Source of the DNA: Erysipelotrichaceae bacterium
GTDB taxonomy: Bacteria > Bacillota_I > Bacilli_A > Erysipelotrichales > Erysipelotrichaceae
Assembly: GCA_963663995.1 (NCBI GenBank)
Contig: OY760660.1
Location: 240,001 to 272,000, forward strand
Direction of reading: 5' to 3'
Length of the DNA stretch: 32,000 nucleotides
The notes below the pieces were generated by a model. That model worked only from the letters and a program-made list of their open reading frames with translations. It was not told the DNA's origin and did not search any database. Below, one piece after another: positions 2,800 through 24,501 of this stretch (its first letter is position 1; each line of letters opens with the position of its first letter). The position numbers and the translations under genes were made by a program.

Positions 2800-3266
2800 T
2801 GGAATTTAGATTTGCAGAGCGAGCAGATACAGTGCTTATTTTAACGTTAATTGAAAAGTTAGCTGATTATGAAAAAATGACTGAGGATGTAGTCGCTACA
2901 CCTGAATTATTAGAAGAATGGATCTTTGATAAATCAAAAGCTGAAGTTCTTTTTGTTTTAGATAATCATAAAGAAGTCGGAATGGCTTTATTCTTCCATA
3001 ATTTTTCTACTTTCTTAGGAAAAGGTGGGATCTATTTAGAAGATCTCTATGTTTTAGAAGAGAATAGGGGAAAAGGTTATGGTAAAGCTTTATTAAAGAA
3101 GTTAGCTGAAATAACTGTTGAAAGAGAATGTGGTCGCTTAGAATGGGCTTGTTTGAATTGGAATCAACCAAGCATTGATTTTTATTTATCTTTAGGGGCA
3201 CAACGTATGGATGAATGGAATGTATATCGTTTAAGTGGAGAACAGCTCTTAAAAGTCGCGAAATAG
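2799..3266 (+). CDS. GNAT family N-acetyltransferase
   Basis: Acetyl-CoA binding motif A (LYVLEENRGKGYGKALLKKLAEIAVE) and diamine-acetyltransferase-like architecture. The start overlaps the upstream stop (TAATG). Confidence 0.8.
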   Translation: MEFRFAERADTVLILTLIEKLADYEKMTEDVVATPELLEEWIFDKSKAEVLFVLDNHKEVGMALFFHNFSTFLGKGGIYLEDLYVLEENRGKGYGKALLKKLAEITVERECGRLEWACLNWNQPSIDFYLSLGAQRMDEWNVYRLSGEQLLKVAK

Positions 3267-5858: not shown

Positions 5859-5932
5859 GCGGATGTAGTTCAATGGTAGAACTTCAGCCTTCCAAGCTGA
5901 CTACGTGGGTTCGATTCCCATCATCCGCTCCA
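5859..5932 (+). tRNA. tRNA-Gly (anticodon TCC); its 3' end is the att core of the downstream islands
   Basis: Acceptor GCGGATG/CATCCGC, anticodon stem CAGC/GCTG with loop CTTCCAA, T-arm GTGGG-TTCGATT-CCCAT, encoded CCA. The last 17 nt recur four times downstream. Confidence 0.9.
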
Positions 5933-5943
5933 ATAGTCAAATT

Positions 5944-5967
5944 AGCCCTTAAATAAAGGGTTTTTTT
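5944..5967 (+). terminator. Terminator hairpin after tRNA-Gly
   Basis: CCCTT (5946-5950) pairs with AAGGG (5956-5960), followed by T7. Confidence 0.55.
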
Positions 5968-5980
5968 ATGCTTAAAAAAA

Positions 5981-6000
5981 AGTGCAACGGAAAGTGCAAC
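5981..6000 (+). repeat. Paired AGTGCAAC direct repeats (candidate arm-type recombinase sites, left arm of island 1)
   Basis: AGTGCAAC at 5981-5988 and 5993-6000. The same pair recurs at 17253-17270 near the other island end. Confidence 0.5.
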
Positions 6001-6061
6001 GCTCATATTGAAAATTAAAAGAAGAATATTTCTAATATTCTTCTTTATTTTACAAGTAATA

Positions 6062-7366: not shown

Positions 7367-7553
7367 CTTTCTTTTCCAAATCTACATCTAGACCACCAGT
7401 TTTTTCTAAAAAATCTAAGTTGATTTTTAACTCTTTGATAGCTATATCAGTTGGAATTAAAGCTCTACTATAATTTTCAAAAACATCGTAATTAATTTTT
7501 GATTGTATTTCTTTAATAATTTTTCTTGCAGAAGGTAATACAAGTACCTTTGA
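7347..7553 (-). pseudogene. Start-less 3' gene fragment upstream of int
   Basis: 69 stop-free codons (…ARKIIKEIQSKINYDVFENYSRALIPTDIAIKELKINLDFLEKTGGLDVDLEKKDEAHVN*) with no ATG/GTG/TTG start. The stop overlaps the int start. A run this long is unlikely by chance in AT-rich DNA. Confidence 0.3.
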
Positions 7554-7785
7554 CTATGTTAATAATCAAATCGTTAAGAAAACGGATGCGCTAGGAAATG
7601 AAGAACGCATTCAATATGATCGAAATAACCAAGTTATCGAAACAAAGACAGTCGATCATGTTTTAGGAACCATCGCACAAAAAACATTCACGTATGATGG
7701 AGTCGGAAATAAACTATCCGAAACAGACCTCTATGGAAATCAAACTCACTATAGCTATGATGCCAATGGCAATCTTTTAAGAAGC

Positions 7786-12777: not shown

Positions 12778-13136
12778 TGAAAGATATCAAAAATATAATT
12801 GACGAATACCGAAATAATGCTGTCTTACACTGGAATGCATCACGTGATGGAAATTATAAAGCTGCTAACAAAAGTTATTCGAAGTTAACCAAAATATATA
12901 AACAATTGATTCAAAGTGAGAAACTAGGTGATAATATTTTATTAAATTTACTAAATGATCAGAATTTTGCTGTTCAATTATGGGCAGCCTCACATTGTCT
13001 TGCATTAGAAAAATCAAAAGAAGTTGCAGTTCAAAAGTTAGAATTTATTTCTAAAATGAATCCAAATGAAGCACCAAGTTTTGAAGCAAGAATGGTACTG
13101 AATGAATGGCGAGAAAAAGGTAGATTGACTTTTTAA
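12777..13136 (+). CDS. Cognate immunity protein candidate for the WHH nuclease tip (DUF2019/HEAT-like helical protein)
   Basis: The start overlaps the toxin stop (TAATG). 119 aa and all-helical. The pattern RDGNYKAANKSYSKL...LLNDQNFAVQLWAASHCL...EARMVLNEWREKG resembles DUF2019-type immunity proteins as I recall them. Confidence 0.6.
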   Translation: MKDIKNIIDEYRNNAVLHWNASRDGNYKAANKSYSKLTKIYKQLIQSEKLGDNILLNLLNDQNFAVQLWAASHCLALEKSKEVAVQKLEFISKMNPNEAPSFEARMVLNEWREKGRLTF

Positions 13137-13296
13137 GTGATGAACTTTTTAGTAATTGGTGCAAATATTGCCGTTAAAATTGCACATAAGATTTTTTCAA
13201 AATCAAAAGGAGTTTGACTTGGTTGTCTGGTTAAACCTTTGAAACACAATGTGCGTCTGGAATGAATGTTTTAAAGCAATTTGAGTTAACGAAGTG

Positions 13297-13416
13297 ATGA
13301 AACTAATAAGTAAAGCAGCTGCCATTGAACTGTATATTTCAAGTTGTAAAATTATGTATGAAGTAACTTTAACAGGTGATTATAAAGCAAATAATAGGGA
13401 AGGTAAAAAATATTAA
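13297..13416 (+). pseudogene. Truncated paralogue of the immunity gene (39 codons)
   Basis: MKLISKAAAIELYISSCKIMYEVTLTGDYKANNREGKKY*. TGDYKANNR aligns with DGNYKAANK of the 12777 immunity protein. The ORF stops exactly where the RHS repeat copy 2 begins. Confidence 0.4.
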
Positions 13417-14255
13417 AGTCATCAAACAGAAGGACTCAGAGAGACAATCTATTCTTATCAAAGCAATATCTTTGGCAATAAGAGTCATTTAACTGAATAT
13501 TATTATGATGGTGATCTCGTCTTTAGTGAATCCACCAGCATGACCTATAACCATCTCAATCAACTTGAGACTTCGATTACATCAGGTGTGACTACAAACT
13601 ACAGTTATGATGATTATGGAAACCTCATTGAAGAGAATGATGGAACCCATAGTATTACCTATACCTATGACTTAAATAACAAGTTGATAGGTGTAGTCGA
13701 TGGTTCTAGTAGCTTAAGTTTCATTTATGATGGAGCAGGTAATCGATTAAGTAAGGTTGTTGATAGTATACAAGTTGACTATGTCAATGACATCACTGAA
13801 GACAATACCAATGTCTTAAGTTATCAAGTAGACTCAGCTACTACAAACCTTGTCTATGGCAATGAATTACTCAGTGAAAACAGTGTTTTCTATTTAAGCG
13901 ATGCTTATGGGAATATTGTTCAACATGGAAGTGAATCCTATGCTTATGACCCTTATGGAGCACTCACTGAAGGAAGTATTGATAGTGTTAATGAAGTCGG
14001 GTACAAAGGTGAAGTACATGATACCAGTGATTTACAATACCTAAGAGCTAGAACCTATAGTACCAAACTTCATCAATTCCTAACTGAAGATACCTATACT
14101 GGTCAAGCAGGATCACCGCTCTCACAAAACAGATACATCTTTGCATTAAACAATCCATTTAAGTATTCTGATCCTACTGGGCATTACTTTGTGGAAGAGG
14201 ATGTTGTCTTAACAGGTTCACAAACAGCTCAAGCAATTCAAAATTCATATGAAAA
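13415..14255 (+). repeat. Copy 2 of the 0.84-kb direct repeat (5' part of the orphan RHS cassette)
   Basis: See 10745-11585. A TAA at 13414-13416 immediately precedes the homologous reading frame. Confidence 0.9.
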
Positions 14256-15642
14256 GGCAACAAGCTCTACAAGTACAAATTCAGGTGCACCTTTGTATGA
14301 TGATTTAGCTCCAACTATTAGACCACCTAAGATTGATAGTGCACCACCACTACTGCCTGGACCTATTTATCTAGCATCACAAGCACTTTTATATGACGAT
14401 TTAGAATATCAAGTTGTTAAATCAAGTCCTGTATTACCTAATAATCAGTCTTATATGTTGAATTACATTAGTCCTGAAACTTTTCAACAAGTTACAGAAT
14501 ATAAACGAAGTTCTATGAGTATTCAAACTGACCCGTATAATACGTATAATGGATATGTTGATTACAAAGGGAACATGACCCGTGAACAACAGAAAATCTA
14601 TGAACAAACATTGAATCCAGCAGCTGCTTTTGATCAATGGAAGAACGAAGATGTTAATCGAAAAGCGATTTTTGATGGGATTGAAACAGTTGTAGGTGGA
14701 GTCGTTACAGCAGCAGTAGGTGTTGGAACCATATTGGGTGCAGCCACTGCAGCACCCATCATCGCAACAATTGTTGGCATCGCTGGTGTTGGTAGTTTAT
14801 TATATGGATTATCAAATGCTTTTGAAGGAATACACAAGCTTAGCTTAGGTTTAAATGGACATGGTGGAGACAGGTCATTTAATCTAATAAGAGACACGTT
14901 GTTCTTAGGAAATAGTGATTTATATCTTTTAGTAGGAGCGACAACTACTTTATTCTCAGCAAGTGGGCTTGGCGCGATTGCGGGTGGTGCAACTAGTGGA
15001 ATGAAGTTTGCTACTAGTGTACTAACACAATTAACGAAGTTTTCAGCAACTGGTGCTTTGTCCATTGGAGTAGGTTCAGTTGTTGAAGCGGCAAGTAAGA
15101 GTGAAACACTAGGTAAATTCGCAGCAATTACAACCGCTATTAAAACCTATCCACACATAAGCAAGGGTATAGATAAAGCAATAAGTGTTGTGAGTGATGT
15201 TGCATCAAATATCTCAAGTTATGTGAATGCTAATAAGGTCAATTCAAAAAATGATTTATATACAGGAGTTAAAGAAGCATCAGAATTTCTCAAGTCACAA
15301 AATGTTCCACGTGATTATAGAAAGCAGATTCTCGAATCATTTGATGTACGAACCATAAAAATGGAAACTGCTGGTGACTCAACTTATGGTATTAGATTTT
15401 ATGGTGGAAATGCTCAAGCAAAAGGTAGATACTTATTTGAAACTTTTTCAAATACGACAAATAGAAATAACTTAGCATTACCTAATCAGTTTAATACTAT
15501 GACAGGATTACAACAATTTCAGGTTAAAAGCGGAACGCAAATGATTACAGGAAATACAGCACCGCAACTACAGTATGGTTCTCAATATTTAGGAGGAGCT
15601 AAGCAATGGTACATAAGCAATTTGGAGGCATTATTAAAATGA
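13540..15642 (+). CDS. Orphan RHS C-terminal cassette: RHS core end, hydrophobic pre-toxin module and an alternative toxin tip (TNT/NADase-like?)
   Basis: RHS-homologous frame is open from 13417, with the first Met at 13540 and no RBS. DPTGH at 14170-14184. The sequence diverges from the main gene after about 14255. C-terminal ~130 aa: YGIRFYGGNAQAKGRYLFE...RNNLALP...FQVKSGTQMITGNTAPQLQYGSQYLGGAKQWY. Confidence 0.8.
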   Translation: MTYNHLNQLETSITSGVTTNYSYDDYGNLIEENDGTHSITYTYDLNNKLIGVVDGSSSLSFIYDGAGNRLSKVVDSIQVDYVNDITEDNTNVLSYQVDSATTNLVYGNELLSENSVFYLSDAYGNIVQHGSESYAYDPYGALTEGSIDSVNEVGYKGEVHDTSDLQYLRARTYSTKLHQFLTEDTYTGQAGSPLSQNRYIFALNNPFKYSDPTGHYFVEEDVVLTGSQTAQAIQNSYEKATSSTSTNSGAPLYDDLAPTIRPPKIDSAPPLLPGPIYLASQALLYDDLEYQVVKSSPVLPNNQSYMLNYISPETFQQVTEYKRSSMSIQTDPYNTYNGYVDYKGNMTREQQKIYEQTLNPAAAFDQWKNEDVNRKAIFDGIETVVGGVVTAAVGVGTILGAATAAPIIATIVGIAGVGSLLYGLSNAFEGIHKLSLGLNGHGGDRSFNLIRDTLFLGNSDLYLLVGATTTLFSASGLGAIAGGATSGMKFATSVLTQLTKFSATGALSIGVGSVVEAASKSETLGKFAAITTAIKTYPHISKGIDKAISVVSDVASNISSYVNANKVNSKNDLYTGVKEASEFLKSQNVPRDYRKQILESFDVRTIKMETAGDSTYGIRFYGGNAQAKGRYLFETFSNTTNRNNLALPNQFNTMTGLQQFQVKSGTQMITGNTAPQLQYGSQYLGGAKQWYISNLEALLK

Positions 15643-15917
15643 TAAACGAGAAAGAATTTGGAGATAAGTATTTAGAATTAATTCAAATTGTTGAAAACGA
15701 ATTAGATTTAGTAAATAAAGGTTTGAATAAGAGATCAAGTCAACAACTAAAAACTATAATAATTGATTTGAAAAAAATGAATATTATCAAGGATTTAAAT
15801 CAATTTATGCCAAGTTATCCTAGATTTATTGTAGATTCTTGGGATTTTGACGATTTGCTAGGCATAGAATTACTAAAATTCTATGAACTCTATAAAAAAA
15901 TACAAATTAATAACTAG
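15639..15917 (+). CDS. Candidate immunity protein for the orphan toxin tip
   Basis: ATG overlaps the toxin stop (ATGA at 15639-15642), with GGAGG at 15624-15628. 92 aa, small and helical. The ORF-track start at 15606 lies inside the toxin gene. Confidence 0.6.
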   Translation: MINEKEFGDKYLELIQIVENELDLVNKGLNKRSSQQLKTIIIDLKKMNIIKDLNQFMPSYPRFIVDSWDFDDLLGIELLKFYELYKKIQINN

Positions 15918-16211
15918 ACAAGTAAGTAAAGACACTTATAAATAATTTATTCTAAGTGCACACTGAACAAAAAATATGGTAATACCGATTTGTTGTCGAT
16001 ATGTTTAGAACCTCAAAAATGTCAATTTGATGTATGTTTGAAATTCTTAGAAGGAGTATTATCAAATCAACAGAAAATTGAAATCACAAGTTGAACTGTG
16101 GTGGAAAACATGAATGGTTATTGTTACCATATACATAGATTTGTTGCCTTATATAGAACTAACAAAACTATATTACTCTTAGGTAACAATATGTCTATCA
16201 AACTTTTCGAA

Positions 16212-16341
16212 CCCCTAGTCCTCCCCTAGTTTTGATATGGGAAGCTGCGGGAAGATTTGGGACGAAATGGCATGAAATGGTAGAGTTTGGGAAGCTTTGA
16301 TGTGTGTGGTTCGATTCCTGTCAAGCGAACCTGCGATTCCT
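16212..16341 (+). repeat. Cluster of short direct repeats at ~10-11 bp spacing plus a T-loop-like remnant
   Basis: CCCCTAGT x2 (16212, 16223). GGGAAG x3 (16239, 16249, 16289). GAAATGG x2 (16264, 16274). CGATTCCT x2 (16312, 16334). GGTTCGATTCC at 16308-16318. Confidence 0.6.
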
Positions 16342-16439
16342 AATTTGAATATGACTAATAAGAAATCTCGTTTAAATTCATAAAACAATCTTTTCTACAT
16401 ACATTTTAATTTTAATATTAAAATATTAGCAATAAAGAA

Positions 16440-16461
16440 ATCGTAACAAAATCGTAACAAA
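16440..16461 (+). repeat. Tandem 11-bp repeat ATCGTAACAAA x2
   Basis: Perfect tandem copies at 16440-16450 and 16451-16461, followed by AAATAAAGAAAATAAAGAAA. Confidence 0.7.
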
Positions 16462-16722
16462 ATCTTATGAAAATAAAGAAAATAAAGAAAAAAAGCCCAA
16501 AAAAGAGGCTAAAAACGAATGATTTTGAAAGAAAAACAATAGAAATAAGGAAAATGGAGAATCCCTCTGAGGACGTGTTGAAAAGGAATTTGTATAGTTT
16601 TTTACATATTTGATTTTTTGATAAACAATATTTATTCTCGTACCTTATCAAGTTCATTATTTAAAAACCGAATTATTTGTCATTACAATAAAGTTATATG
16701 GTACAATTTCATAAAATAGAAG

Positions 16723-17223
16723 ATGAGAAATTGGTTAACAGATAAAATACCAGAAGAAGGATATGAATACAAAGGCTGTTCAGATATTCGAAATATTTTC
16801 GATGAGTGTATGTATGATTATTCAGAATTTAATGGCAAAATTTGTGATATATGTGAAACAAATATAGGGTTTATTTCACATCGTTTTTTTCATCCAATGC
16901 ATATATTAAGTGTACATTCATGTCATAGTTGTGCACAAAAGATTTTGGGTGATTCAAAAATACTTATAGAAAATGAAAAAGAGCAAAATAGAATATATGA
17001 TTTAAAAGTTAAATTTTTAAAACTTGATGGACAAGAAAAACCTAATGGAAATATTGTGATTAACTATGAGGGTAAGATAATAACCATTATGAAAAGCAAA
17101 TATAGTAATGGATATGGAGTAGTTTACAATAATAATTTTATTTGGAAATACTCTGGTAAAACTATTAAAAATATAGAAGTTGCAAAATTAGTTGCATTTA
17201 AGAAATTTATAATTTATGAGTAA
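16723..17223 (+). CDS. Cys/His-rich hypothetical protein (possible zinc-binding)
   Basis: 166 aa with CDICE (C-x2-C) and CHSC (C-x2-C) pairs. No family recognised. Last gene of island 1. Confidence 0.4.
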   Translation: MRNWLTDKIPEEGYEYKGCSDIRNIFDECMYDYSEFNGKICDICETNIGFISHRFFHPMHILSVHSCHSCAQKILGDSKILIENEKEQNRIYDLKVKFLKLDGQEKPNGNIVINYEGKIITIMKSKYSNGYGVVYNNNFIWKYSGKTIKNIEVAKLVAFKKFIIYE

Positions 17224-17252
17224 TTCTGAAAGATTATTTAGTGTTTTAAAAA

Positions 17253-17270
17253 AGTGCAACAAAGTGCAAC
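17253..17270 (+). repeat. Paired AGTGCAAC direct repeats (right arm of island 1)
   Basis: AGTGCAAC at 17253-17260 and 17263-17270, about 105 bp before the att copy. Matches the pair at 5981-6000. Confidence 0.5.
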
Positions 17271-17373
17271 ACCAAACCCTTTCTTTAGTTTCTTTTATTT
17301 GTTTTTATTTCATAAAGTGTCTTAAAAATTACCTTATTTTTAATAAAAAATGTTATTTGTGGTTGGTGTAGTA

Positions 17374-17390
17374 TCCCATCATCCGCTCCA
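17374..17390 (+). repeat. att core copy 2 (17/17 identical to the tRNA-Gly 3' end)
   Basis: TCCCATCATCCGCTCCA, followed by the hairpin AAGCCC-ATAAAA-GGGCTT plus a T-run (17401-17423). Confidence 0.9.
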
Positions 17391-17474
17391 TATGACATTT
17401 AAGCCCATAAAAGGGCTTTTTTTGTTGTAAAATCGAGTAAAACTATATAAAATTCTATAAAATTTAAATCTATA

Positions 17475-17502
17475 TGACCCAGTTGGGTCATATCTGGGTC
17501 AC
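17475..17502. repeat. CTGGGTCA motifs, left arm of islet 2
   Basis: TGACCCAG (inverted, 17475-17482), TTGGGTCA (17483-17490), CTGGGTCAC (17494-17502). Confidence 0.6.
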
Positions 17503-17686
17503 AGAGATAACTCAAAATCATATTTTATCTAACATTTTTATATTATATTAGTGAAATATGATTAAATATTAACTTGTCTTTACAATGTTGAGACTATTAA
17601 TTAACAATAGATTCATTAAGTAAAATTTTATAGGAATGATGCTATAATTTAATTGTTATTACAAATAGTTGTTTTGGGGGTATTCA

Positions 17687-18406
17687 ATGTTGAAATTAGA
17701 TAGAAAATACATGCTTATTTATGTGTTTGTACTATTTTACTCTATATTTCCTAAGTTTATATTTAATAATACAATCGAATTTACATATACTTTCATGATA
17801 TTTATTACGCTTTTAATAATAGGCACTTTTATTTTTATGTACATTGATCTTCTCAAAAATAAAGATGTACTGAAAAATATAAAAAATGTAAGCACAATTG
17901 ATAAAGTATATTCTTTAATTAAGATAATTGTTATAAACTTGTTTGTTTTTATAACAGCTTTCTTGTTGTATTTTATCTCAGGCAATGTAATCAGACTTAT
18001 TACTGAGCTTATGAAAAATAATAGTGTTAATATATCTGCAATCTTTGATTTTCATCCAAGATTTAATATATTTGTTATTGTGATCGCTGGTATTTTTGGT
18101 TCACTATATCCTGTTTTCGTTATTAGTTTATATCTGATTTTTATTATTCTATATTTGTCAAAAGAAAGTAAATATAATTGGTACAATTCTCATTTCATGC
18201 TTTTCGTTTTAGTTTCGATGACTTTGTATTTTATATACACAATTTGGGAATTTTTTATATCAATTAATTCAACTTTTAGTATATTTCGTTTAGATTATTT
18301 TCTTTACTCTTTAGTGATAACAGTTTTTCCATATTTACTTTTTGTTAAACGAAAGAAATTAATGAATCTTATTTTCAAATACACATGTAATATTAACTAT
18401 TTCTAA
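17687..18406 (+). CDS. Polytopic membrane protein, unknown function
   Basis: About 7 hydrophobic segments and no recognisable motif. The ORF-track start at 17669 is a TTG; the first ATG is at 17687. Confidence 0.5.
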   Translation: MLKLDRKYMLIYVFVLFYSIFPKFIFNNTIEFTYTFMIFITLLIIGTFIFMYIDLLKNKDVLKNIKNVSTIDKVYSLIKIIVINLFVFITAFLLYFISGNVIRLITELMKNNSVNISAIFDFHPRFNIFVIVIAGIFGSLYPVFVISLYLIFIILYLSKESKYNWYNSHFMLFVLVSMTLYFIYTIWEFFISINSTFSIFRLDYFLYSLVITVFPYLLFVKRKKLMNLIFKYTCNINYF

Positions 18407-18525
18407 AATTTAATATCATTATATTTTTCTTATCAAGTTCAAACTATATCACTAGCTGATGATGATTGTATTTATAATAATAGAAATTAGTTTTCATTAA
18501 AGAAAATTAAAAAGGGGGATTAATT

Positions 18526-18987
18526 ATGAAAATAGGTATTAAAAAAACAGTTTATACATGCGCTTTATTTTCAGTTGGATTATTTATACTCAATTTTTAT
18601 GTTTCTCTGTACATGTATATGGAAGAGGCTGCATACAAAATTGAAGTAAACAAAGTAGTGCAACTACATTACCTTGCGATGATCATATGTTTTATTTTTG
18701 GAATTCTTATTGAATCAAACCGTATCATTGCGTTTTTACAGAAAAAAATTCAATTTAAATTGACTGCAGTATTCATAATCGGTTTGATAATGTTTTCAAT
18801 CGGATTAATTTCAGCCACAACTTATATAAGTTGGTTTGGATTAGAGTTTTGGCAACCATTTCCTAGAGGAAGAATAGGTATTAACATGTTTGTTGGAATA
18901 TTAACTAAAACAATTAGTATTCAATCCATATTAAGTGTTGTTGGAGGTACTTTGGTTGTTAAAGGATTATTTCCAGACAACTATTAA
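18526..18987 (+). CDS. Polytopic membrane protein, unknown function
   Basis: 153 aa with about 4 TM segments. Strong RBS AAGGGGGA 7 nt upstream. Confidence 0.55.
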   Translation: MKIGIKKTVYTCALFSVGLFILNFYVSLYMYMEEAAYKIEVNKVVQLHYLAMIICFIFGILIESNRIIAFLQKKIQFKLTAVFIIGLIMFSIGLISATTYISWFGLEFWQPFPRGRIGINMFVGILTKTISIQSILSVVGGTLVVKGLFPDNY

Positions 18988-19085
18988 TGTAATAAGATAT
19001 TAAGTTTTTTAATACAATGGAAAAACATGAGTGGATATTGTTACCATATGTATAGATTATAATTATGTTTATCACAAATTATTTA

Positions 19086-19105
19086 CTGGGTCACAGCTGG
19101 GTCAC
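19086..19105 (+). repeat. CTGGGTCAC x2, right arm of islet 2
   Basis: Copies at 19086-19094 and 19097-19105 (11-bp period). This begins a ~145-bp block conserved with 22275-22416 and 24285-24427. Confidence 0.7.
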
Positions 19106-19211
19106 GAAATACCAAATATCTTAATAAATCTTATTAATTTATGTATAATCATGTTATAGAATATTCAGTTTTATTGCGTTATATTTGGTTTTACAAGTGG
19201 TAATTGGTAAG

Positions 19212-19228
19212 TCCAATCATCCGCTCCA
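19212..19228 (+). repeat. att core copy 3 (16/17)
   Basis: TCCAATCATCCGCTCCA, followed by the hairpin AAGCCT-ATAAAA-AGGCTT plus a T-run (19239-19261). Confidence 0.85.
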
Positions 19229-19409
19229 TAAGAGATTTAAGCCTATAAAAAGGCTTTTTTTGTTATAAAATTTAACAAAACTGCATAAAAATTCATGAAA
19301 CATATATCTTTATGAGCCAGATACACATCGTATATTTTTTATGTAACTACATGAACTATGATTATGATTATTTTTTTGAAACACTGTTCTTTAAAAGTAT
19401 CCGTTGGAG

Positions 19410-20648
19410 TTAATTGCTATACATCCAATTCAAAAGGGTTATTTTCTCTTTATAATAAATGATGGCTACTTTGTACTTGCTTCGATTTTCATAATATGTA
19501 ATCAGTCGATCTAGTACGAATTCATAGTTTTCAAAATTCCGTGTATCTTTAGTTATTGAATGAAGTTGAAGCAGTTTAGATTCAAGTTTAGTTTCATTGT
19601 TGCTATATTCACACTGTATAATCTCCATTTCGAGTTTGTACATTGGATCAGTAAAACTGAATATTTTATTTTGATAGAGTTGATTAGCTTCTTGTGTCTG
19701 ACTTAATTGATAAAGACATGAACACTTAATAAAGATTCCATTTTCTGATAATTCTTGTTCAAGTTCTATTTGTTTTAAATATTCTAATGAGTCTTTATAT
19801 TCTTTATTTAGAAATGAGAACCAAGCTAGATTGTAGAGGATGACAATCTCTGTTTCTGTATCTAGAGTTGTCGAAAGAATCCGTTTGTACATTTTTTGTG
19901 ATGTTCTAAAATGTCCTAACTTTGAATTTATAGAAGCACTATGGATTTGCATATGTGTTAGTCGTTTTAGATTGCGTGTTTTAAGAAAATAATCCTCTGC
20001 AATTTCACTCAAAGACAAAGCTTTATTTAGTTTTCCATAATACGTATAAATAAACGATGCATGGTAATGAATTAATCCAGCGCTACTTTCTCTAGTTTCA
20101 TATTGAAGGGCACGATCAATCGTATTAACCGCTTCTTGAATTTGATTGTTTTTAAGAAGTTCAATCGCTTTGTAATCATAGTATAGCTGTTTGAGTTCAA
20201 TCTCAAAAAGATGGACATTTTTAATCACATATTGATATGAATCAAGATCATAATGAAGACCTAATATATGCAGGATATAAAAGATTGTATGATATTGATT
20301 CATAACTTCTGAGTAGAAGATATACTGATTGGCTAATCTTACTTGATGAATCAATCTTTCAATTTCTATTTCATTATCGAAAATGATAGATTCTAATAGA
20401 TCATTCAAATCTTCATTGAGTTTATCTTCAATATAAAGCACTGATTCTAAGTTAATATTTAAATATCGTGCTAAAGTATGAATGTTTTCTTGATTGAGAT
20501 CTCGTAATCCAATTTCGTATTTAGAAAGACTTTGATAGCTGTAACTTGTTAGTTCTGATAACTCTCTAAGCGTAAGATTTTTCTGCTTACGAGCATCAGA
20601 AAGAAGTTTTAAGATATTGATGTTTTGAAAAGTTAGTTTGTCGCCCAT
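19410..20648 (-). CDS. RNPP/Rgg-like transcriptional regulator (N-terminal XRE-type HTH and C-terminal TPR-like helical repeats)
   Basis: HTH: KQKNLTLRELSELTSYSYQSLSKYEIGLRDLNQENIHTLARYLNI. This is followed by ~350 aa of helical-repeat sequence (e.g. AGLIHYHASFIYTYYGKLNKALSLSEIAEDYF, ILYNLAWFSFLNKEYKDSLEYL). The ORF-track start at 20714 is a TTG; the ATG at 20648 (MGDKLTF) is conserved in the paralogue. Confidence 0.7.
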   Translation of the reverse strand: MGDKLTFQNINILKLLSDARKQKNLTLRELSELTSYSYQSLSKYEIGLRDLNQENIHTLARYLNINLESVLYIEDKLNEDLNDLLESIIFDNEIEIERLIHQVRLANQYIFYSEVMNQYHTIFYILHILGLHYDLDSYQYVIKNVHLFEIELKQLYYDYKAIELLKNNQIQEAVNTIDRALQYETRESSAGLIHYHASFIYTYYGKLNKALSLSEIAEDYFLKTRNLKRLTHMQIHSASINSKLGHFRTSQKMYKRILSTTLDTETEIVILYNLAWFSFLNKEYKDSLEYLKQIELEQELSENGIFIKCSCLYQLSQTQEANQLYQNKIFSFTDPMYKLEMEIIQCEYSNNETKLESKLLQLHSITKDTRNFENYEFVLDRLITYYENRSKYKVAIIYYKEKITLLNWMYSN

Positions 20649-20753
20649 AATTAGTATAATTATACAATTCAAATTTGAAATTGTCCGAAATTTGTAGACA
20701 AGATCGTTTCTCAAATTAGATATAATTGATATATAAGAAAGGTGGGTGGCTGA

Positions 20754-20813
20754 ATGATTGAACTCTACTACTTAATAATCGATTTGTTTGATATGGTATT
20801 GCCTAAGTTTTAA
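20754..20813 (+). CDS. Unannotated 19-codon hydrophobic peptide ORF (candidate SHP-like signalling pro-peptide)
   Basis: AAAGGTGGGTGG RBS 4 nt upstream of the ATG. Encodes MIELYYLIIDLFDMVLPKF. Divergent from the regulator across a 105-bp intergenic region. The paralogue at 22856-22915 differs at 5 nt: 4 synonymous and 1 Leu-to-Ile. Confidence 0.55.
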   Translation: MIELYYLIIDLFDMVLPKF

Positions 20814-20865
20814 GACTAATAAGAATTTATTAAAATGTCATGATTATGACAATGAAAGGGAGTTT

Positions 20866-21948
20866 ATGAGAATTCTAAAAAGTTTATTTGTTATATTGTT
20901 TTTCATTAGTTTGACTAGTCCAGTGAATGCGAGCACTGATGAGATTACATTTCAAGATAATTTCAATTATAATGGGCACGATTATAAAATGGTAATAGAG
21001 TATTTGAATCCACAAAGAGAATTAAATGATTTTTTGTCGAATCATTCCGAATTTTATAATGATATTTATTTAGCTTTTGGTGGCATTAGTTTAACTGAAA
21101 GTAGTATTTCTTCATTTAAACTGAAAGAAAATGAATTATATACAAATAATTTGCAAAAATATTTGGAATTCTCCGATGATTTTGATGATTTCAATTCATT
21201 CTTAGATATTTACGAAAACACATTTATTAATAGCTCCATAAGAAGTTATGTGAATTTAAAATCAGTTGATGAAAATATTAACTATATTTTCGAAAATTTA
21301 CCATATGATGAAGCTGTATTGTTTAGAAGTAATAATTTAACTTTATTATCAAGTACAATAAGTAAAAGTACTAGAGCTATAAAGAATATATCAGCAGGTG
21401 TTTCCTATGCTCAACAATATGCTTTAGCTCCTAATACAATTGACAAATATAATTATTTTCTAGGCACGGATTGTACAAATTTCGGATCACAAATAATGGA
21501 AGCGATGGGTGTCTTACAAAACTATCCTGGAACTAATGATGCATATAAAGGTTGGTGGCATAAAATTACAAAAACTTATAATCCTTATACAAACTCTTAT
21601 GATTATACACACTATTATTCATCTTCCTTTATTAATACACAATCATTTGCATTGTATTTTGGTATTTACAATAAATACACATCATTTTTAACATTCAGTC
21701 AAAATGTAAAAGTGGGTGATTTTATTTTGATTGATGAAAGTAGAGATGATGCTTGGGATCATCTTGGATTTGTAACATCAATATCACCAAGTTCGAGTAC
21801 TTATATTGATGAGAATGGCGTAAGTAGAACGTATTATAATTTTAAAGTTGCTCAGCATTCAAGCAATTATCATGCATTTGTAAATTCTAGTACAAATAAT
21901 TGGGAACAAAAAAACAATACAAGAACATATGGTATTCTTAAGAGATAA
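20866..21948 (+). CDS. Secreted protein with a C-terminal putative amidase domain (Amidase_6 / NlpC-P60-like Cys-His)
   Basis: GGGAG RBS, then MRILKSLFVILFFISLTSPVNA|S signal peptide. The C-terminal half has YAQQYA...GTDCTNFGSQIMEAMGV (21469-21483 encodes DCTNF), VGDFILID...WDHLGFV and VAQHSSNY, matching the DCTNFvSQ...H pattern of the putative amidase domain family. The ORF-track start at 20788 is an upstream TTG in non-conserved sequence. Confidence 0.65.
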   Translation: MRILKSLFVILFFISLTSPVNASTDEITFQDNFNYNGHDYKMVIEYLNPQRELNDFLSNHSEFYNDIYLAFGGISLTESSISSFKLKENELYTNNLQKYLEFSDDFDDFNSFLDIYENTFINSSIRSYVNLKSVDENINYIFENLPYDEAVLFRSNNLTLLSSTISKSTRAIKNISAGVSYAQQYALAPNTIDKYNYFLGTDCTNFGSQIMEAMGVLQNYPGTNDAYKGWWHKITKTYNPYTNSYDYTHYYSSSFINTQSFALYFGIYNKYTSFLTFSQNVKVGDFILIDESRDDAWDHLGFVTSISPSSSTYIDENGVSRTYYNFKVAQHSSNYHAFVNSSTNNWEQKNNTRTYGILKR

Positions 21949-22195
21949 GTGGAAAATAATCGTTTGTACTATTTGGCTAATAGTATTTATATTTGATTAT
22001 GGTTCTGTGTTAAACGGAAAAAAACCTACTTTTATTGTTCCTGTTGAATTTCAGTTTAATCTTGATGAGGCCAAATATCTGTATATAGGATTGGGGTATG
22101 GGGTTGTCTATAAAGAATATCCTCCTGAAGTCATAATTGTTCAGGCTGACTTCTATATTTTATGTTTTAAGATACAGTCAATAAATTCTTACTGA
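21929..22195 (+). CDS. Small membrane-anchored protein (possible immunity/partner of the amidase-domain protein)
   Basis: 88 aa with one N-terminal TM (IIVCTIWLIVFIFDYG). Overlaps the upstream gene by 20 nt. Confidence 0.4.
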   Translation: MVFLRDKWKIIVCTIWLIVFIFDYGSVLNGKKPTFIVPVEFQFNLDEAKYLYIGLGYGVVYKEYPPEVIIVQADFYILCFKIQSINSY

Positions 22196-22274
22196 TGTTA
22201 TGTTTTGATATTTTGTTGTTATTGTTTTGCATATAATAAATGAAAGTTGTGAAATAGGACTCATTTTTTGTACG

Positions 22275-22294
22275 CTGGGTCACAACTGGGTCAC
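22275..22294 (+). repeat. CTGGGTCAC x2, right arm of islet 3
   Basis: Copies at 22275-22283 and 22286-22294. Confidence 0.7.
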
Positions 22295-22399
22295 GAAATA
22301 CTAAAAATCTTAGTAACCTTATAAATTCATGTATAATCTTGTTATAGAATATTCAGTTATATTGCGTTTTATCAGGTTTTACAAGAGAAACATGGTAAG

Positions 22400-22416
22400 T
22401 CCCATCATCCGCTCCA
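22400..22416 (+). repeat. att core copy 4 (17/17)
   Basis: TCCCATCATCCGCTCCA, followed by the hairpin AAGCCT-ATAAAA-AGGCTT plus a T-run (22427-22450). Confidence 0.9.
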
Positions 22417-22588
22417 TAAGAGATTTAAGCCTATAAAAAGGCTTTTTTTTGTCGTAAAATTGAACAAAACTACATAAAAATTCATAAAACTTATATCTTT
22501 ATGACCCAGATGGTTAATATATATTTTTATGTGACTACCTGAATTATGATTATGAATATTTTATTTGAAACGATGATCTTTAAAAATA

Positions 22589-22750
22589 TTATAGGGAGTT
22601 AATTGTTATACCAATTTCGTATTTAGAAAGACTTTGATAGCTGTAACTTGTCAGTTCTGATAACTCTCTAAGAGTAAGATTTTTCTGCTTACGAGTATCA
22701 GAAAGTAGTTTTAAGATATCAATTTTTTGAAAAGTTAGTTTGTCGCCCAT
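22589..22750 (-). pseudogene. Truncated RNPP-like regulator (HTH only, 53 codons)
   Basis: MGDKLTFQKIDILKLLSDTRKQKNLTLRELSELTSYSYQSLSKYEIG is near-identical to the N-terminus of the 19410-20648 product, then a new short tail. The ~1.08-kb TPR-coding part is missing, and the junction is at CCAATT (22611-22616). Confidence 0.7.
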
Positions 22751-22855
22751 AATTAACATTATTATACAACTCAATTTTGAAAATGTCCGAAATTTGTAGA
22801 CAAGATCGTATCACAAATTAGATATAATTTATAAATGGGAAAGGTGGGTGGCTAG

Positions 22856-22915
22856 ATGATTGAACTCTATTACATAATAATCGATCTGTTTGATATGGTT
22901 TTACCTAAGTTTTAA
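22856..22915 (+). CDS. Second copy of the 19-codon hydrophobic peptide ORF
   Basis: The same RBS (AAAGGTGGGTGG). Encodes MIELYYIIIDLFDMVLPKF. Confidence 0.5.
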   Translation: MIELYYIIIDLFDMVLPKF

Positions 22916-22967
22916 GACTAATAAGAATTTATTAAAATGTCATGATTATTACAATGAAAGGGAGTTT

Positions 22968-23624
22968 ATGAGAATTCTAAAAAGTATATTCGCATTATTG
23001 TTTTTCGTTAGTTTATTAAGTCCAGTCAGTGCGAGTACTAATGAGATATTTGTAGGTGAAACTACTGTCACAAATATAGAAATTGATGGGATTAATTATA
23101 CATATACACAATATTCCACAGAATCAAGTAATTTTATGTTAGTAGATGATGGTAATTCTATAGATATATTTGAATATAATTTACAAACAAATATATTATT
23201 AATGAATAATGAACTATTTGGGATTACTAGGTTTACTACATCATATAGTAGAGCAGCTTCTTGCACTATTCCTTTACTAACTGGATTAAGAGATGAACAA
23301 GGGAATTTAGCTGTTTATGAAGGTTGTGCAACTTCAAATATTCCAGTTGGAACTGCTACAACAGCAGCACTTGCTGCAAAATCAATTTTCACAGGTGTGC
23401 CTGTAATTGTTATTCAGAACAAACTATTATCATACCTTGCAAAAACAGTACTACCTCTATATTTAGACAAAGCAATGTCATCTGCAAGACAACAGTATAG
23501 ATCTAAATATACTATGCTAGATCCGTATTCTGGATTGTATAAATATAAGAGATTATATAATTCATATATATATGTAATAAATTATAAATTGTATGGTCCA
23601 AGTGCGTCAGGTTGGTTCTTTTAA
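22968..23624 (+). CDS. Secreted protein of unknown function (shares its signal peptide with the amidase-domain protein)
   Basis: MRILKSIFALLFFVSLLSPVSA|S is homologous to the 20866 leader. The mature part is unrelated and no family was recognised. Confidence 0.55.
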   Translation: MRILKSIFALLFFVSLLSPVSASTNEIFVGETTVTNIEIDGINYTYTQYSTESSNFMLVDDGNSIDIFEYNLQTNILLMNNELFGITRFTTSYSRAASCTIPLLTGLRDEQGNLAVYEGCATSNIPVGTATTAALAAKSIFTGVPVIVIQNKLLSYLAKTVLPLYLDKAMSSARQQYRSKYTMLDPYSGLYKYKRLYNSYIYVINYKLYGPSASGWFF

Positions 23625-23635
23625 TTCGCTAAATT

Positions 23636-23932
23636 ATGAAAAAAATTCAATGTCCACATTGCCAATTTAAATTAAATAAATCGACTATTCTTAGTTTGAT
23701 TTTGTTTGATGTCAATTGTCCAAATTGTAAAAGTCGCTTAGGATTTATTAAAGGAAAAAGAACACAACCAATAATAGTTTTGATTATATTAATAAGTTAC
23801 AGTGTAATAAAAACAGAGTTGATAATTTATATAGCATATTCTTTCCTAATATGGAACTTAGGTTCGTTATGGGATATTTACAAAAATGGATTATATGAGA
23901 TTGATTCACATAATAGTTGTGAAAATGATTGA
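23636..23932 (+). CDS. Zinc-ribbon membrane protein
   Basis: CPHC...CPNC pair at the N-terminus, followed by two TM segments. 98 aa. Confidence 0.45.
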   Translation: MKKIQCPHCQFKLNKSTILSLILFDVNCPNCKSRLGFIKGKRTQPIIVLIILISYSVIKTELIIYIAYSFLIWNLGSLWDIYKNGLYEIDSHNSCEND

Positions 23933-24284
23933 TTAATAATCTTTAAATTAATAAAAAACATAAAATATAATATGATAAAAAAGCAAAGATTAGTAACTTG
24001 TTAGAAGTTTATTGTAATGTAAAAGAACTAGTTACAAGTGAATGCTATTGATGATTTTATAAGCTAAGTGAACCATTCAATGAATCACTTGGTTTTAATT
24101 TAGAGTTGATTTATTATTATTTTCGTTTGAAATGTAATTTAAAATATTTTGTCTTGTTTTTGTAATTTTCCACCTAATTATAATTAATTAGGATATTTGA
24201 GTTAATGGTTTATGGTGGTGAAAAGATATATGTAAGTATTAATACTATGTAAATAGAAGAAAAATATAAATTATGCTTAATGTG

Positions 24285-24304
24285 CTGGGTCACAACTGGG
24301 TCAC
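24285..24304 (+). repeat. CTGGGTCAC x2, right arm of islet 4
   Basis: Copies at 24285-24293 and 24296-24304. Confidence 0.7.
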
Positions 24305-24410
24305 GAAATACTAAATATCTAAATAAATCTTATTAATTCATGTATAATCTTGTTATAGATTATTCAGTTATATTGCGTTTTATTTAGATTTACATGAGGT
24401 AAATGGTAAG

Positions 24411-24427
24411 TCCCATCATCCGCTCCA
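24411..24427 (+). repeat. att core copy 5 (17/17), distal boundary of the accessory region
   Basis: TCCCATCATCCGCTCCA, followed by the hairpin AGCTCC-TTATA-GGAGCT plus a T-run (24439-24461). Confidence 0.9.
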
Positions 24428-24501
24428 TATGATACTTCAGCTCCTTATAGGAGCTTTTTTTGTAAAGTTTTAAGTATTTTTTATGAAGATTATTTCATTT
24501 G

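Follow-up and report, generated by a model that had tools for sequence, protein, structure and literature searches.

An array of elements at the 3′ end of a tRNA-Gly gene

In the window (the whole stretch of 32,000 nucleotides that was analysed), a Val-Thr-Tyr-Gln-Lys-Gly tRNA cluster ends with tRNA-Gly(TCC) as its last gene. The 17-nt 3′ end of this gene is repeated at 17374, 19212, 22400 and 24411 (repeat family D5), and these core copies separate one integrase-bearing island (island 1) and three short islets (islets 2, 3 and 4). We refer to the arm type of islets 2-4 as x-type, with the right arm designated Px and the left arm P′x. The array is laid out as follows.

5859-5932, + strand: tRNA-Gly(TCC) (ARAGORN, Rfam, repeat family D5)
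5916-5932: shared recombination core within the tRNA (its last 17 nt, TCCCATCATCCGCTCCA); attB and left junction of the array
5933-17373: island 1 (context), a complete element with an integrase, its own arm repeats and RHS-toxin cargo
5981-6000 and 17253-17270: arm repeats of island 1, AAGTGCAAC twice, in both arms
6062-7366, − strand: tyrosine integrase of island 1 (Pfam PF00589, PHROG integrase)
17374-17390, + strand: core copy J1, a hybrid with the island-1 arm on its left and the x-type left (P′) arm on its right
17391-17502, + strand: left (P′) arm of islet 2; terminator hairpin 17401-17418; A-tracts at 17429, 17439, 17449 and 17459 (10-bp phase); three sites, TGACCCAG (17475-17482, inverted, minus strand), TTGGGTCA (17483-17490) and CTGGGTCAC (17494-17502)
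17669-18987, + strand: islet 2 cargo, two predicted multi-pass membrane proteins (17669/17687-18406 and 18526-18987, both +)
19086-19211, + strand: right (P) arm of islet 2; starts with CTGGGTCAC-AG-CTGGGTCAC (19086-19105); TGTATAAT box 19142-19149
19212-19228, + strand: core copy J2, TCCAATCATCCGCTCCA, with one mismatch (TCCAATC...)
19229-19320, + strand: left (P′) arm of islet 3; terminator 19239-19256; phased A-tracts at 19267, 19277 and 19287; one site, mutated, TGAGCCAG (19313-19320)
19410-22195, both strands: islet 3 cargo, an HTH_3 and TPR-like regulator (19410-20651, −, Pfam), a secreted Amidase_6 protein (20866-21948, +, Pfam) and an 88-aa membrane protein (21929-22195, +)
22275-22399, + strand: right (P) arm of islet 3; starts with CTGGGTCAC-AA-CTGGGTCAC (22275-22294); TGTATAAT box 22330-22337
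22400-22416, + strand: core copy J3, intact
22417-22509, + strand: left (P′) arm of islet 4; terminator 22427-22444; A-tracts at 22456, 22466, 22476 and 22486; one site, intact and inverted (22502-22509)
22589-23932, both strands: islet 4 cargo, a regulator stub of 53-61 aa (22589-22750, −), a secreted protein that differs from that of islet 3 and has the same promoter and signal peptide (22968-23624), and a zinc-ribbon membrane protein (23636-23932)
24285-24410, + strand: right (P) arm of islet 4; starts with CTGGGTCAC-AA-CTGGGTCAC (24285-24304); TGTATAAT box 24341-24348
24411-24427, + strand: core copy J4, right end of the array

Beyond J4 there is no P′ arm; a different terminator (24439-24455) comes next, and then chromosomal genes (PadR at 24483). 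With its core mismatch and mutated left-arm site, J2 shows decay in at least part of the window's array. Island 1 carries an RHS toxin and associated genes (RHS repeats), and its arm repeat motif occurs 6 times against 0.59 expected. The islets use the tRNA-Gly core with arm sites unlike these, as the preliminary description of this locus had proposed, and a second arm specificity is therefore needed.

That description also held that cargo differs between the arms, which is accurate for islet 2 and only partly so for islets 3 and 4. The two membrane proteins of islet 2 match no family in Pfam or PHROGs, and the arms are the sole part that islet 2 shares with the other two. Islets 3 and 4 are ~91% identical across the left arm, the 5′ end of the HTH-TPR regulator, the divergent promoter and the signal peptide (family D3), and ~1.08 kb of the regulator gene is deleted in islet 4 relative to islet 3. 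Homologues of the islet 3 cargo are found at four other loci (L217-L220). Among plausibly coding ORFs of at least 60 aa in 17391-24427, no match to a recombinase family was found in Pfam or PHROGs, in agreement with the original reading of the islets as recombinase-less. The only phage-family match of any cargo gene (PHROGs) is a generic HTH regulator, which leaves the label ‘satellite-like’ without support.

Arm anatomy and its attP-like layout

Each of the three right-arm copies leads into a core, begins with CTGGGTCAC-N2-CTGGGTCAC and spans ~126 nt, or 142-143 bp with the core, close to the ~145 bp initially estimated. The three left-arm copies follow cores at 17391, 19229 and 22417 (repeat family D4), again as first described, and carry a terminator, A-tracts phased at 10 bp and (C/T)TGGGTCA sites that are either inverted or direct. 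The motif had been reported from both arms, inverted in the left one, at 17475-17482 and 22502-22509 and in degenerate form at 19313-19320; these coordinates are correct, but the copy number is not uniform, with three sites in islet 2 and one each in islets 3 and 4. The exact 9-mer CTGGGTCAC occurs 7 times in the window, always in arms, where 0.07 would be expected; none of 100 shuffles reaches 7. The 8-mer of the motif has 9 exact occurrences in the window, likewise all within arms. Phased A-tracts lie at +38, +48, +58 and +68 in nearly all P′x arms, diverged variants included; neither the chromosomal flank nor the P′ arms of island 1 and of the z-type have them. Downstream of the core, the hairpin varies in sequence among variants, and a stem-loop with a T-run is present in every one.

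Read across each core, the right arm, core and left arm have, to judge from the sequence, the layout of a complete lambda-type attP. Such a unit comprises two CTGGGTCAC arm-type sites in direct orientation (-126 to -107), a spacer of 106 nt that is conserved, and the 17-nt core that equals the tRNA 3′ end. The P′ side adds a terminator, which closes the tRNA operon wherever P′x adjoins the tRNA, four A-tracts in 10-bp phase that may bend the DNA intrinsically, and TGGGTCA sites at +84 to +112, of which one is inverted and up to two are direct. The lambda attP is the substrate of lambda Int, a heterobivalent tyrosine integrase. Common to both is an attB-identical core placed between repeated arm-type sites at fixed distances in both arms, with bending between core and arm (predicted here) and a total of ~260 bp. 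Unlike the lambda-type site, the islet site apparently owes its bend to phased A-tracts, which are intrinsic, and not to recognisable host-factor sites, contains a transcription terminator, and belongs to elements without an integrase. Elements that use the same core and do encode an integrase (island 1, and L183 and L194 from IMG/VR) have their own tandem 9-11-bp repeats between terminator and integrase gene, which supports the assignment of such repeats as arm-type sites. At one further locus, L126, a repeat of this kind follows the core, and no integrase match was found.

A different function could be imagined for the TGTATAAT box, which is invariant or nearly so in 16 of 16 aligned copies and ends ~62 nt before the core. 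The box could drive a ~105-nt transcript running through the tRNA-Gly 3′ end as far as the terminator, making the unit a small-RNA gene or regulatory module with the CTGGGTCAC repeats as an activator site upstream of the TGTATAAT-box promoter. Indeed, the Px repeats lie ~38 nt upstream of a -10 hexamer (TATAAT), and the core is always followed by a terminator. We consider this very unlikely, as RNAalifold found no conserved structure from box to terminator and Rfam gave no match, and as the segment that holds the box in one clade also appears in inverted form within the left arm (TTATGCAAT-N-TTGT), like a protein-binding site. It would additionally leave the hybrid junctions described below, and the sites beyond the terminator, unexplained.

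The same arms around unrelated cargo

A search of relatives, which the preliminary description had called for, yielded further cassettes with these arms; no tyrosine recombinase flanked by CTGGGTCAC was found in the loci examined. The arm-core-arm unit is present in at least 4 other genomes (Erysipelotrichaceae, unclassified Bacillota MAGs and one untitled assembly) and in ~12 metagenome contigs, with OW818653.1 and DPJD01000001.1 among the carriers. In these the arms adjoin cores at the same spacing and surround unrelated cargo of 1.8 to ~20 kb, different in every case, and at least 10 distinct cargo sets bear x-type arms. This contradicts a local segmental duplication without mobile-element meaning as the sole source of the triplication, despite the three tandem junctions and the partial paralogy of islets 3 and 4 (families D1, D3 and D4). 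Islet 2 shares nothing but arms with its neighbours, and islets 3 and 4 are equally close to each other and to L219 and L220, which come from other samples; we regard that origin as highly improbable.

Conservation within the units is selective. The first repeat starts 126 nt before the core in each of the 19 P arms that are complete, and P′ sites begin at +83 to +86 after the core across loci. Between genomes, homology starts exactly at the first CTGGGTCAC and stops at the last TGGGTCA. When the window clade is compared with the other clade, identity is 98% in the arm sites, 98% in the core and 61% over the remainder of the P arm; units within one clade are 87-90% identical over ~260 bp. The regulator-cassette family (islets 3 and 4, L219 and L220) has kept only one site in its P′ arms, and mutated cores or sites also occur in L202 and L219. 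L220 is a mosaic, islet-3-like on its left and islet-4-like on its right; its contig has identical 30-nt ends and may represent a circle or an assembly-graph repeat node. For the window's own islets, no circular junction and no precise empty site were seen.

The within-clade identity is sufficient for homologous recombination, and together with the L220 mosaic and the 91% identical backbone of islets 3 and 4 it suggests another possible source of the array. The 260-bp units could be portable homology only, through which RecA-dependent recombination would duplicate, delete and exchange cassettes, either inside the array or following transformation, with site-specific recombination needed for the integrase-bearing neighbours alone. 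This proposal seems to us improbable, as it explains neither invariant sites and core beside a drifting spacer nor the exact stop of homology at the outermost sites. Nor does it account for the hybrid junctions, where the switch of arm type always falls inside the 17-nt core. In the window, such hybrids join the island-1 arm to P′x (J1) and Px to the chromosome (J4). Elsewhere the tRNA is joined to P′x (L107, L205), a third arm type with two copies of AAGTGGGGAAAA to P′x (L111), and Px to a fourth type with two copies of ACCGGGTAAA, followed by an integrase N-terminus matching PF14657 Arm-DNA-bind_4 (L201/L202).

The half-units also contradict a MITE-like transposable element moved by a transposase, with CTGGGTCAC ... 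GTGACCCAG as terminal inverted repeats. The ends of the complete unit are indeed inverted repeats, the L004 unit folds better as single-stranded DNA than shuffled sequence (z = -3.2), and one clade has weak inverted similarity of the inner arms (z = 3.6-4.9). In the window clade, however, this similarity is missing (z < 1) and the fold reaches only z = -1.6. No target-site duplication is visible at complete units, and the half-units (P′ alone at the tRNA, P alone at the chromosomal end, others beside foreign arms) are always split at the core. We find a MITE-like origin extremely improbable.

Individual cassettes also bear signs of independent gain and loss. A 4.1-kb aldo-keto-reductase (AKR) element, consisting of P′x, three AKR genes, DUF4440, MerR and Px, was seen in three array contexts: next to tRNA-Gly (L107, L205), behind an element of the third arm type (L111) and behind an x-type arm (L004). 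Similarly, a cassette with an MccF-like (LD-carboxypeptidase-like) and a MerR-like gene has differing neighbours in L022 and L103.

Known systems and the proposed mode of movement

Analogous to integron gene cassettes in attC arrays, the islets are small and recombinase-less, with 1-3 genes of diverse cargo, one orientation, one recombination site per cassette and a fixed platform. They differ in that no integron integrase or attI lies beside the islet array, that their sites are double-stranded and attP-like with arm repeats rather than folded attC hairpins (no conserved fold was found), and that the cassettes have their own promoters and regulators. IMEX elements, which exploit XerCD at dif, are likewise integrative without a recombinase of their own and build up in tandem at one chromosomal site. 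The islets, however, target a tRNA 3′ end, and their site includes arm-type repeats, a feature with no role in Xer recombination.

Tycheposons and tandem tRNA islands in Prochlorococcus (bioRxiv 10.1101/2020.12.28.424599) resemble the array in that serial integration at one tRNA shifts older elements inward, leaving only partial tRNA copies between neighbours, along with degenerate remnants and adaptive or defensive cargo. That system involves another recombinase family and other hosts, and tycheposons by definition carry an integrase and a replication module of their own, neither of which the islets have (bioRxiv 10.1101/2020.12.28.424599). CIMEs and tandem accretion were described for the ICESt1/ICESt3 family of Streptococcus thermophilus (Pavlovic et al. 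2004; Bellanger et al. 2011; summarised in PMC5704250). According to that summary, CIMEs are att-flanked, have no integration or transfer genes and lie in tandem with an integrase-bearing element at a conserved gene's 3′ end, as the islets do. Set against these CIMEs, the islets have an arm-type specificity that differs from that of the neighbouring island, so cis mobilisation by island 1 is not expected, and they have no known autonomous relative. Their family is also distinguished by very small size (1.8-4 kb mostly) and by the same arms around many cargo sets in several genomes with G+C of 26-37%.

The arms are very likely att arms, and the array was in all likelihood built by site-specific accretion. 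Islets 2, 3 and 4 are best explained, with somewhat better than even confidence, as CIME-like integrase-less integrative elements that were stacked by such accretion and moved in trans. The non-autonomous CIME-like character first suggested for them gains support from the arms around other cargo elsewhere, the hybrid junctions, and gain and loss. Arms and core would be bound by a heterobivalent tyrosine integrase with specificity for CTGGGTCAC, which would insert a cassette in circular form into any of the array's cores and later excise it. New elements would enter through the tRNA-proximal core, which would explain the intact, integrase-bearing island 1 beside the tRNA and the older islets further off.

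The cognate integrase is the point at which fossil CIMEs come into question. Each islet could have lost its own integrase by deletion, the standard proposed origin of CIMEs (PMC5704250); the arms would persist through recency, with no dedicated trans-acting integrase and nothing to move them. No integrase lies next to CTGGGTCAC arms in the window or within several kb around the arms in ~25 loci (8-kb tiles of the carriers), and no x-type arm occurs in IMG/VR, INPHARED phages or PLSDB plasmids. Decayed cores or sites at J2, L202 and L219 and the position of the islets distal to the young island 1, as expected of older insertions, point the same way. We nevertheless think this unlikely, if worth serious attention, as the at least 10 distinct cargo sets within complete x-type arms contain neither an integrase nor an integrase fragment. 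The conservation of sites (98%) over spacers (61%) between clades argues for continuing selection on the sites, and the same cassettes recur in differing array contexts.

We infer that the A-tracts bend the DNA, that an integrase binds the sites, and that the elements move in trans rather than being fossils. The case for a living trans-acting integrase that maintains the family is evenly balanced. Since other bacteria have these arms around unrelated genes, the x-type elements are, on sequence comparison, a family of putative non-autonomous integrative elements.

Layout of the array and of its junction units

The 18.5 kb at 5933-24427 are four tandem insertions, because copies of the 3′ end of tRNA-Gly(TCC) split the interval from this gene to a PadR gene, with housekeeping genes on the left and the PadR gene on the right. 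The first insertion, island 1, has its own integrase, and the three that follow are termed islets.

Features of the array (window coordinates)
Left flank: housekeeping genes guaA, a GNAT gene and alanine racemase
5859-5932: tRNA-Gly(TCC), last gene of the tRNA cluster Val, Thr, Tyr, Gln, Lys, Gly
5933-17390: island 1
6062-7366: tyrosine integrase of island 1 (Pfam, PHROGs)
About 48 nt past the core on the left side and 121 nt ahead of the core on the right side of island 1: tandem repeat AAGTGCAAC x2
17374, 19212 (one mismatch), 22400 and 24411: repeats of the core, the last 17 nt of tRNA-Gly, TCCCATCATCCGCTCCA (junctions J1 to J4)
17391-19228: islet 2
19229-22416: islet 3
22417-24427: islet 4
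24483: PadR gene, first gene of the right flank

A terminator hairpin follows every core copy, and each islet is flanked by two core copies, the P′ arm being its left arm and the P arm its right. As the preliminary description had it, both arms are conserved in three copies each, and they were recovered as repeat families and by alignment (right arm at 19086-19211, 22275-22399 and 24285-24410; left arm starting at 17391, 19229 and 22417). The motif CTGGGTCAC occurs exactly seven times in the 32 kb, against 0.07 expected from shuffles, and all seven copies lie in the arms, which we call x-type. Its described presence in both arms also holds, with inverted 8-mer copies in the left arm at 17475-17482 and 22502-22509 and a degenerate copy at 19313-19320. 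At a junction, the right arm, core and left arm make up a unit of about 260 bp.

Parts of the x-type unit (positions relative to the core)
-126 to -107: two direct CTGGGTCAC sites
Spacer of 106 nt
Core of 17 nt
Terminator, after the core
+38, +48, +58 and +68: four A-tracts, exactly 10 bp apart
+84 to +112: TGACCCAG (inverted), then up to two direct TGGGTCA sites

This layout is that of a lambda-type attP site: the core equals the chromosomal target, and repeated arm-type sites distinct from the core lie in both arms at fixed distances. The spacing of arm sites to the core is constant across genomes, and the core matches the tRNA-Gly 3′ end at 17/17 nt in three window copies and in all 13 aligned external copies, the exceptions being J2 (one mismatch) and, outside the window, the decayed junctions of loci L202 and L219. 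Under the Campbell model, P-core-P′ units lie wherever two related elements abut in a tandem array, and the ends of the array are half-units, P′-only beside the tRNA and P-only on the distal side. The window junctions fit this scheme: at J1 the arm of island 1 itself meets an x-type P′ arm, both J2 and J3 have the complete x-type unit (J2 with a mutated arm site besides its core mismatch), and at J4 an x-type P arm runs into chromosomal sequence, without a P′ arm. Island 1 carries AAGTGCAAC x2 and the islets carry CTGGGTCAC; the two therefore have the core in common but differ in arm specificity, in line with the earlier claim that the arm sites are unlike those of island 1. A MAFFT alignment hinted that the right arm is a degenerate copy of the tRNA-Lys end, spacer and tRNA-Gly; local alignment against shuffles was inconsistent (z = 1.0, 1.9 and 3.8), and this origin was rejected.

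Within the right arm, an TGTATAAT box (19142-19149, 22330-22337 and 24341-24348) falls in the same column in all 16 copies from the window and elsewhere (alignment A2) and is invariant or nearly so, its G being changed in 1/16. It has the shape of an extended -10 promoter directed at the core and ends about 62 nt ahead of it; together with the terminator after the core, it would delimit a putative transcript of about 105 nt containing the tRNA-Gly 3′ end. The x-type unit could on this basis be a structured small RNA running from box to terminator, but it has no conserved fold (no consensus fold was found for the unit) and no Rfam family, and we hold this reading to be very improbable. The box may instead be a protein-binding site, because in one clade the segment that contains it recurs inverted in the P′ arm (TTATGCAAT-N-TTGT), a recurrence that also speaks against the small RNA.

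Two observations concern island 1 itself. At 7786-15642 it encodes a 1663-aa RHS-repeat protein, then a 119-aa ORF and a 700-aa second RHS C-terminal piece whose start (13415-13714) is a copy of 10745-11044 at 99% identity, as is typical of a displaced (orphan) RHS toxin tip that has a small gene of its own downstream. A 37-nt sequence, AAAACATGA.TGG.TATTGTTACCATAT..ATAGATT, occurs at 16105-16141 in island 1 and, at 89% identity, at 19022-19058 just upstream of the islet 2 right arm; it is absent from the related loci when searched at up to 9 substitutions.

Related loci and their cargo

Scanning one genome per species for CTGGGTCAC-N2-CTGGGTCAC gave 92 matches, most of which are chance occurrences in high-GC genomes. 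Eight instances, from seven loci in four low-GC genomes, have the repeat start exactly 126 nt ahead of the same core, equivalent to 130 nt to the ATCATCC... 13-mer used in the search.

Carriers of an x-type P arm at the core
Erysipelotrichaceae UBA8511: three sites
Uncultured Erysipelotrichaceae MAG
Bacillota SKS3.bin96: three sites
OW818653.1: two sites

Six further loci came from scanning metagenomes for core-N80-90-TGACCCAG; the additional cassettes for which the preliminary description proposed to search do exist in both genomes and metagenomes, and protein-homologue look-ups added L201-L205, L219 and L220. Among 16 aligned P arms, homology starts at the first CTGGGTCAC. The window copies form one clade and the remaining copies another; between the clades, arm sites and core are 98% identical as against 61% for the spacer, the pattern that selection on protein-binding sites would be expected to leave.

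Cargo between x-type units is unrelated from place to place. At least 10 cargo sets were found with x-type arms, comprising secreted amidases with small membrane proteins, an MccF-like (LD-carboxypeptidase-like) gene, HicAB, aldo-keto reductases, an NADAR gene and membrane proteins.

Examples of cargo with x-type arms
MccF-like (LD-carboxypeptidase) gene and MerR-like gene: 2.1 kb, L022 and L103, named by sequence inspection only
Three-gene cassette with an NADAR-like gene: 2.3 kb, L054, named by sequence inspection only
HTH regulator and Amidase_6 protein: 2.9 kb, L102
Three aldo-keto reductases, DUF4440 protein and MerR: 4.1 kb
Longer stretches of 11 and 20 kb: UBA8511, also with IS elements and folate genes

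Fragments of IS3, IS30, IS256, IS1595 and ISL3 transposases lie near x-type arms in UBA8511, L017 and L022.

In the window, cargo had been described as differing between islets. This stands for islet 2 against the others; islets 3 and 4 are partly paralogous, with the left arm, the 5′ end of the regulator, the divergent promoter and the signal peptide in common at about 91% identity. About 1.08 kb of the regulator gene is gone from islet 4, and the deletion point (22600-22615) appears to join two short ATCCAATT direct repeats of islet 3 (19420-19432 and 20500-20512), which suggests slippage or a microhomology event. Two further loci belong to the lineage of the window. L219 matches the left 1.8 kb of islet 3 at 90% identity and has other secreted proteins, and L220 joins an islet-3-like left part, regulator intact, to an islet-4-like right end; islet 4 is for this reason derived by deletion from an L220-like cassette. 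The family that includes islets 3 and 4 is a population-level one. Local duplication alone, the outcome that would have undone the preliminary description, is excluded by these two loci and by the other external copies with unrelated cargo.

A module recurs in these cassettes. It has an HTH-TPR regulator and a divergent promoter, then a signal peptide that is conserved (MRILKS.F.LLFFISL.SPVSA; window 20866-20935 and 22968-23037, and L217, L218, L219 and L220), a secreted domain that varies, with six kinds seen, and small membrane proteins, one or two in number. It forms an x-type cassette in some loci and an ordinary chromosomal locus without arms in L217 and L218, and looks like a polymorphic effector-plus-immunity arrangement.

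The element with aldo-keto reductases bears on independent gain and loss, whose absence would have counted against the preliminary description and which its three array contexts bear out: directly behind tRNA-Lys/tRNA-Gly (L107, L205), behind an element whose P arm has AAGTGGGGAAAA x2 (L111), and, in UBA8511, behind an x-type P arm, with two further x-type arms in the stretch of at least 31 kb upstream. In one species group, the 4-kb block (MerR, three aldo-keto reductases, DUF4440) has x-type arms at tRNA-Gly. The cargo has a chromosomal counterpart, because sister species hold the same block, gene order kept, as a plain chromosomal locus without arms or cores, with the query aldo-keto reductase at 93-95% protein identity (L004 4048-7657, L107, L111 and L201-L206 compared with L208-L216 and L231). 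These comparisons suggest that an x-type element captured the chromosomal block. Look-ups of aldo-keto-reductase homologues for further arrays returned plain chromosomal loci without arms. In L201, the left arm of the element is possibly also replaced by IS21, on reading of the sequence.

L220 is a 3226-nt Logan contig with one complete regulator cassette, and its positions 1-30 and 3197-3226 are identical (core plus 13 nt). It could be a circular cassette, or merely a repeat node of the k=31 assembly graph.

Integrase searches and comparison with known systems

The one lambda-type feature we did not find is a cognate arm-binding integrase recognising CTGGGTCAC, which was sought in the window, about 25 related loci, IMG/VR, phage records and plasmids. 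Pfam and PHROGs place none of the plausible coding ORFs of the islets in a recombinase, relaxase or coupling-protein family, consistent with the preliminary description, and the x-type elements of about 25 loci contain no remnant of an integrase or conjugation gene, so no autonomous ICE or IME ancestor is documented for them. The tyrosine recombinase that it had proposed to find in relatives, flanked by CTGGGTCAC repeats, did not turn up in these loci, where 8-kb tiles or contigs of up to 20 kb were read around the arms. No cognate integrase came from tblastn of the island 1 integrase and the N-terminus of a second integrase (that of the z-type element discussed below) against all loci, from IMG/VR scans for either arm pattern (P or P′) and for the core by itself, from blastn of the unit against phages and plasmids, or from nhmmer profiles of both arms over all 231 loci. 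The island 1 integrase is itself isolated: a collection of 5.8 billion proteins gave only itself and one match at 29% identity, and a pattern search of IMG/VR gave no relative.

One integrase-like gene beside an x-type P arm, in L201 and L202, was considered as the cognate enzyme and rejected. Arm and gene are separated by a core with mutations and by another tandem repeat, ACCGGGTAAA x2, so the gene belongs to the next element, which has a fourth arm type (z-type). Its N-terminus is a PF14657 arm-binding domain, and the gene is cut by an IS21 insertion; the IS21-family insertions (IstA and IstB genes) lie at about 5250-5330 in L201 and at 1-1760 in L202.

The integrase-bearing elements at this core (island 1, L183 and L194) have their own tandem repeats between terminator and integrase gene, and L126 has a similar repeat, though nothing there matches an integrase; by analogy only, these cases favour an arm-type role for such repeats. 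Tandem 9-12-bp repeats, each element having its own, were seen at the same 17-nt core in L111 (AAGTGGGGAAAA, about 2550-2580), in L202 (ACCGGGTAAA, 2560-2590, minus strand) and just past the cores of L126, L183 and L194 (TAGGTGTAAT x2, TTTAGGCACA x2 and AAAGTTGAT x2). The target core is common to many elements with distinct arm specificities.

The closest known kind of element is the cis-mobilizable element (CIME), which keeps attL and attR, lacks integration and transfer genes and forms tandem accretions with ICEs or IMEs (PMC5704250). Tycheposons likewise stack at tRNA genes, with partial tRNA copies between elements (bioRxiv 10.1101/2020.12.28.424599). The islets have attL/attR-type flanks with the target-gene core and lack integrase, excisionase and transfer genes; judged by structure, x-type elements would qualify as CIMEs, as the preliminary description had suggested. 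Unlike CIMEs, they differ in arm specificity from the neighbour that bears an integrase, they have no known autonomous relative, they are mostly small, and their arms are found with many cargo sets in several genomes that vary in G+C content. The different arm repeats also argue against an integrase of island 1 compatible with co-mobilisation of the islets.

Other known systems fitted less well. An integron cassette array was rejected, the head being tRNA-Gly and the sole integrase that of island 1 with its own arms, with no integron integrase or attI. An attC-like single-stranded hairpin was rejected likewise, there being no conserved structure (z = -1.6 for the fold of the window unit, which is not conserved between clades). 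The ends of the full unit are inverted repeats, as in a MITE, but halves of it, divided at the core, are found at the tRNA, at the chromosomal end and beside foreign arms, which excludes transposition of the whole unit; no flanking duplication is visible, and the arms of the window clade show no inverted similarity. The proposed likeness to phage satellites (PICI-like) was not borne out, a generic HTH regulator being the only PHROG match.

Standing of the x-type family

Tandem, partly decayed tRNA islands are common, and it is usually unclear whether their integrase-less pieces are debris or a working element class. Fossils, the remains of once-autonomous elements without a living integrase, are the rival that remains to CIME-like elements stacked at the core: no integrase was found and junctions have decayed, but many cassettes are complete and remnant-free and the arm sites show selective conservation, and we consider fossils rather unlikely. 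Homologous recombination between units probably contributed to the mosaics, but leaves the invariant sites and the breakpoints within the core unexplained.

A cassette system maintained in trans is a minority possibility. The x-type units would then be recombination sites of an integron-like system built on tyrosine-integrase attP chemistry, in which 2-4-kb cassettes are captured, stacked and reshuffled at tRNA-Gly by a dedicated integrase whose gene lies elsewhere; we regard this as unlikely. The integrase could be a resident chromosomal gene or a rare helper. Cassettes would carry their own promoters, some being copies of chromosomal blocks such as the aldo-keto-reductase cluster, and the host range would be a group of Erysipelotrichaceae-related (low-G+C Bacillota) genomes. 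The family would be kept as non-autonomous elements, like MITEs among transposons, and not as accidental deletion products.

The x-type arms are a recognisable family, conserved across genomes and with their own specificity. Their arm signature of 20 nt, whose distance to the 17-nt core is fixed at 126 nt, is a handle on the missing integrase, and the family allows movement of mini-elements in trans to be tested. If they are not moved in trans, the locus would be an ordinary graveyard of islands; if they are, tRNA-Gly in Erysipelotrichaceae-related bacteria would be a cassette platform for competition and defence genes.
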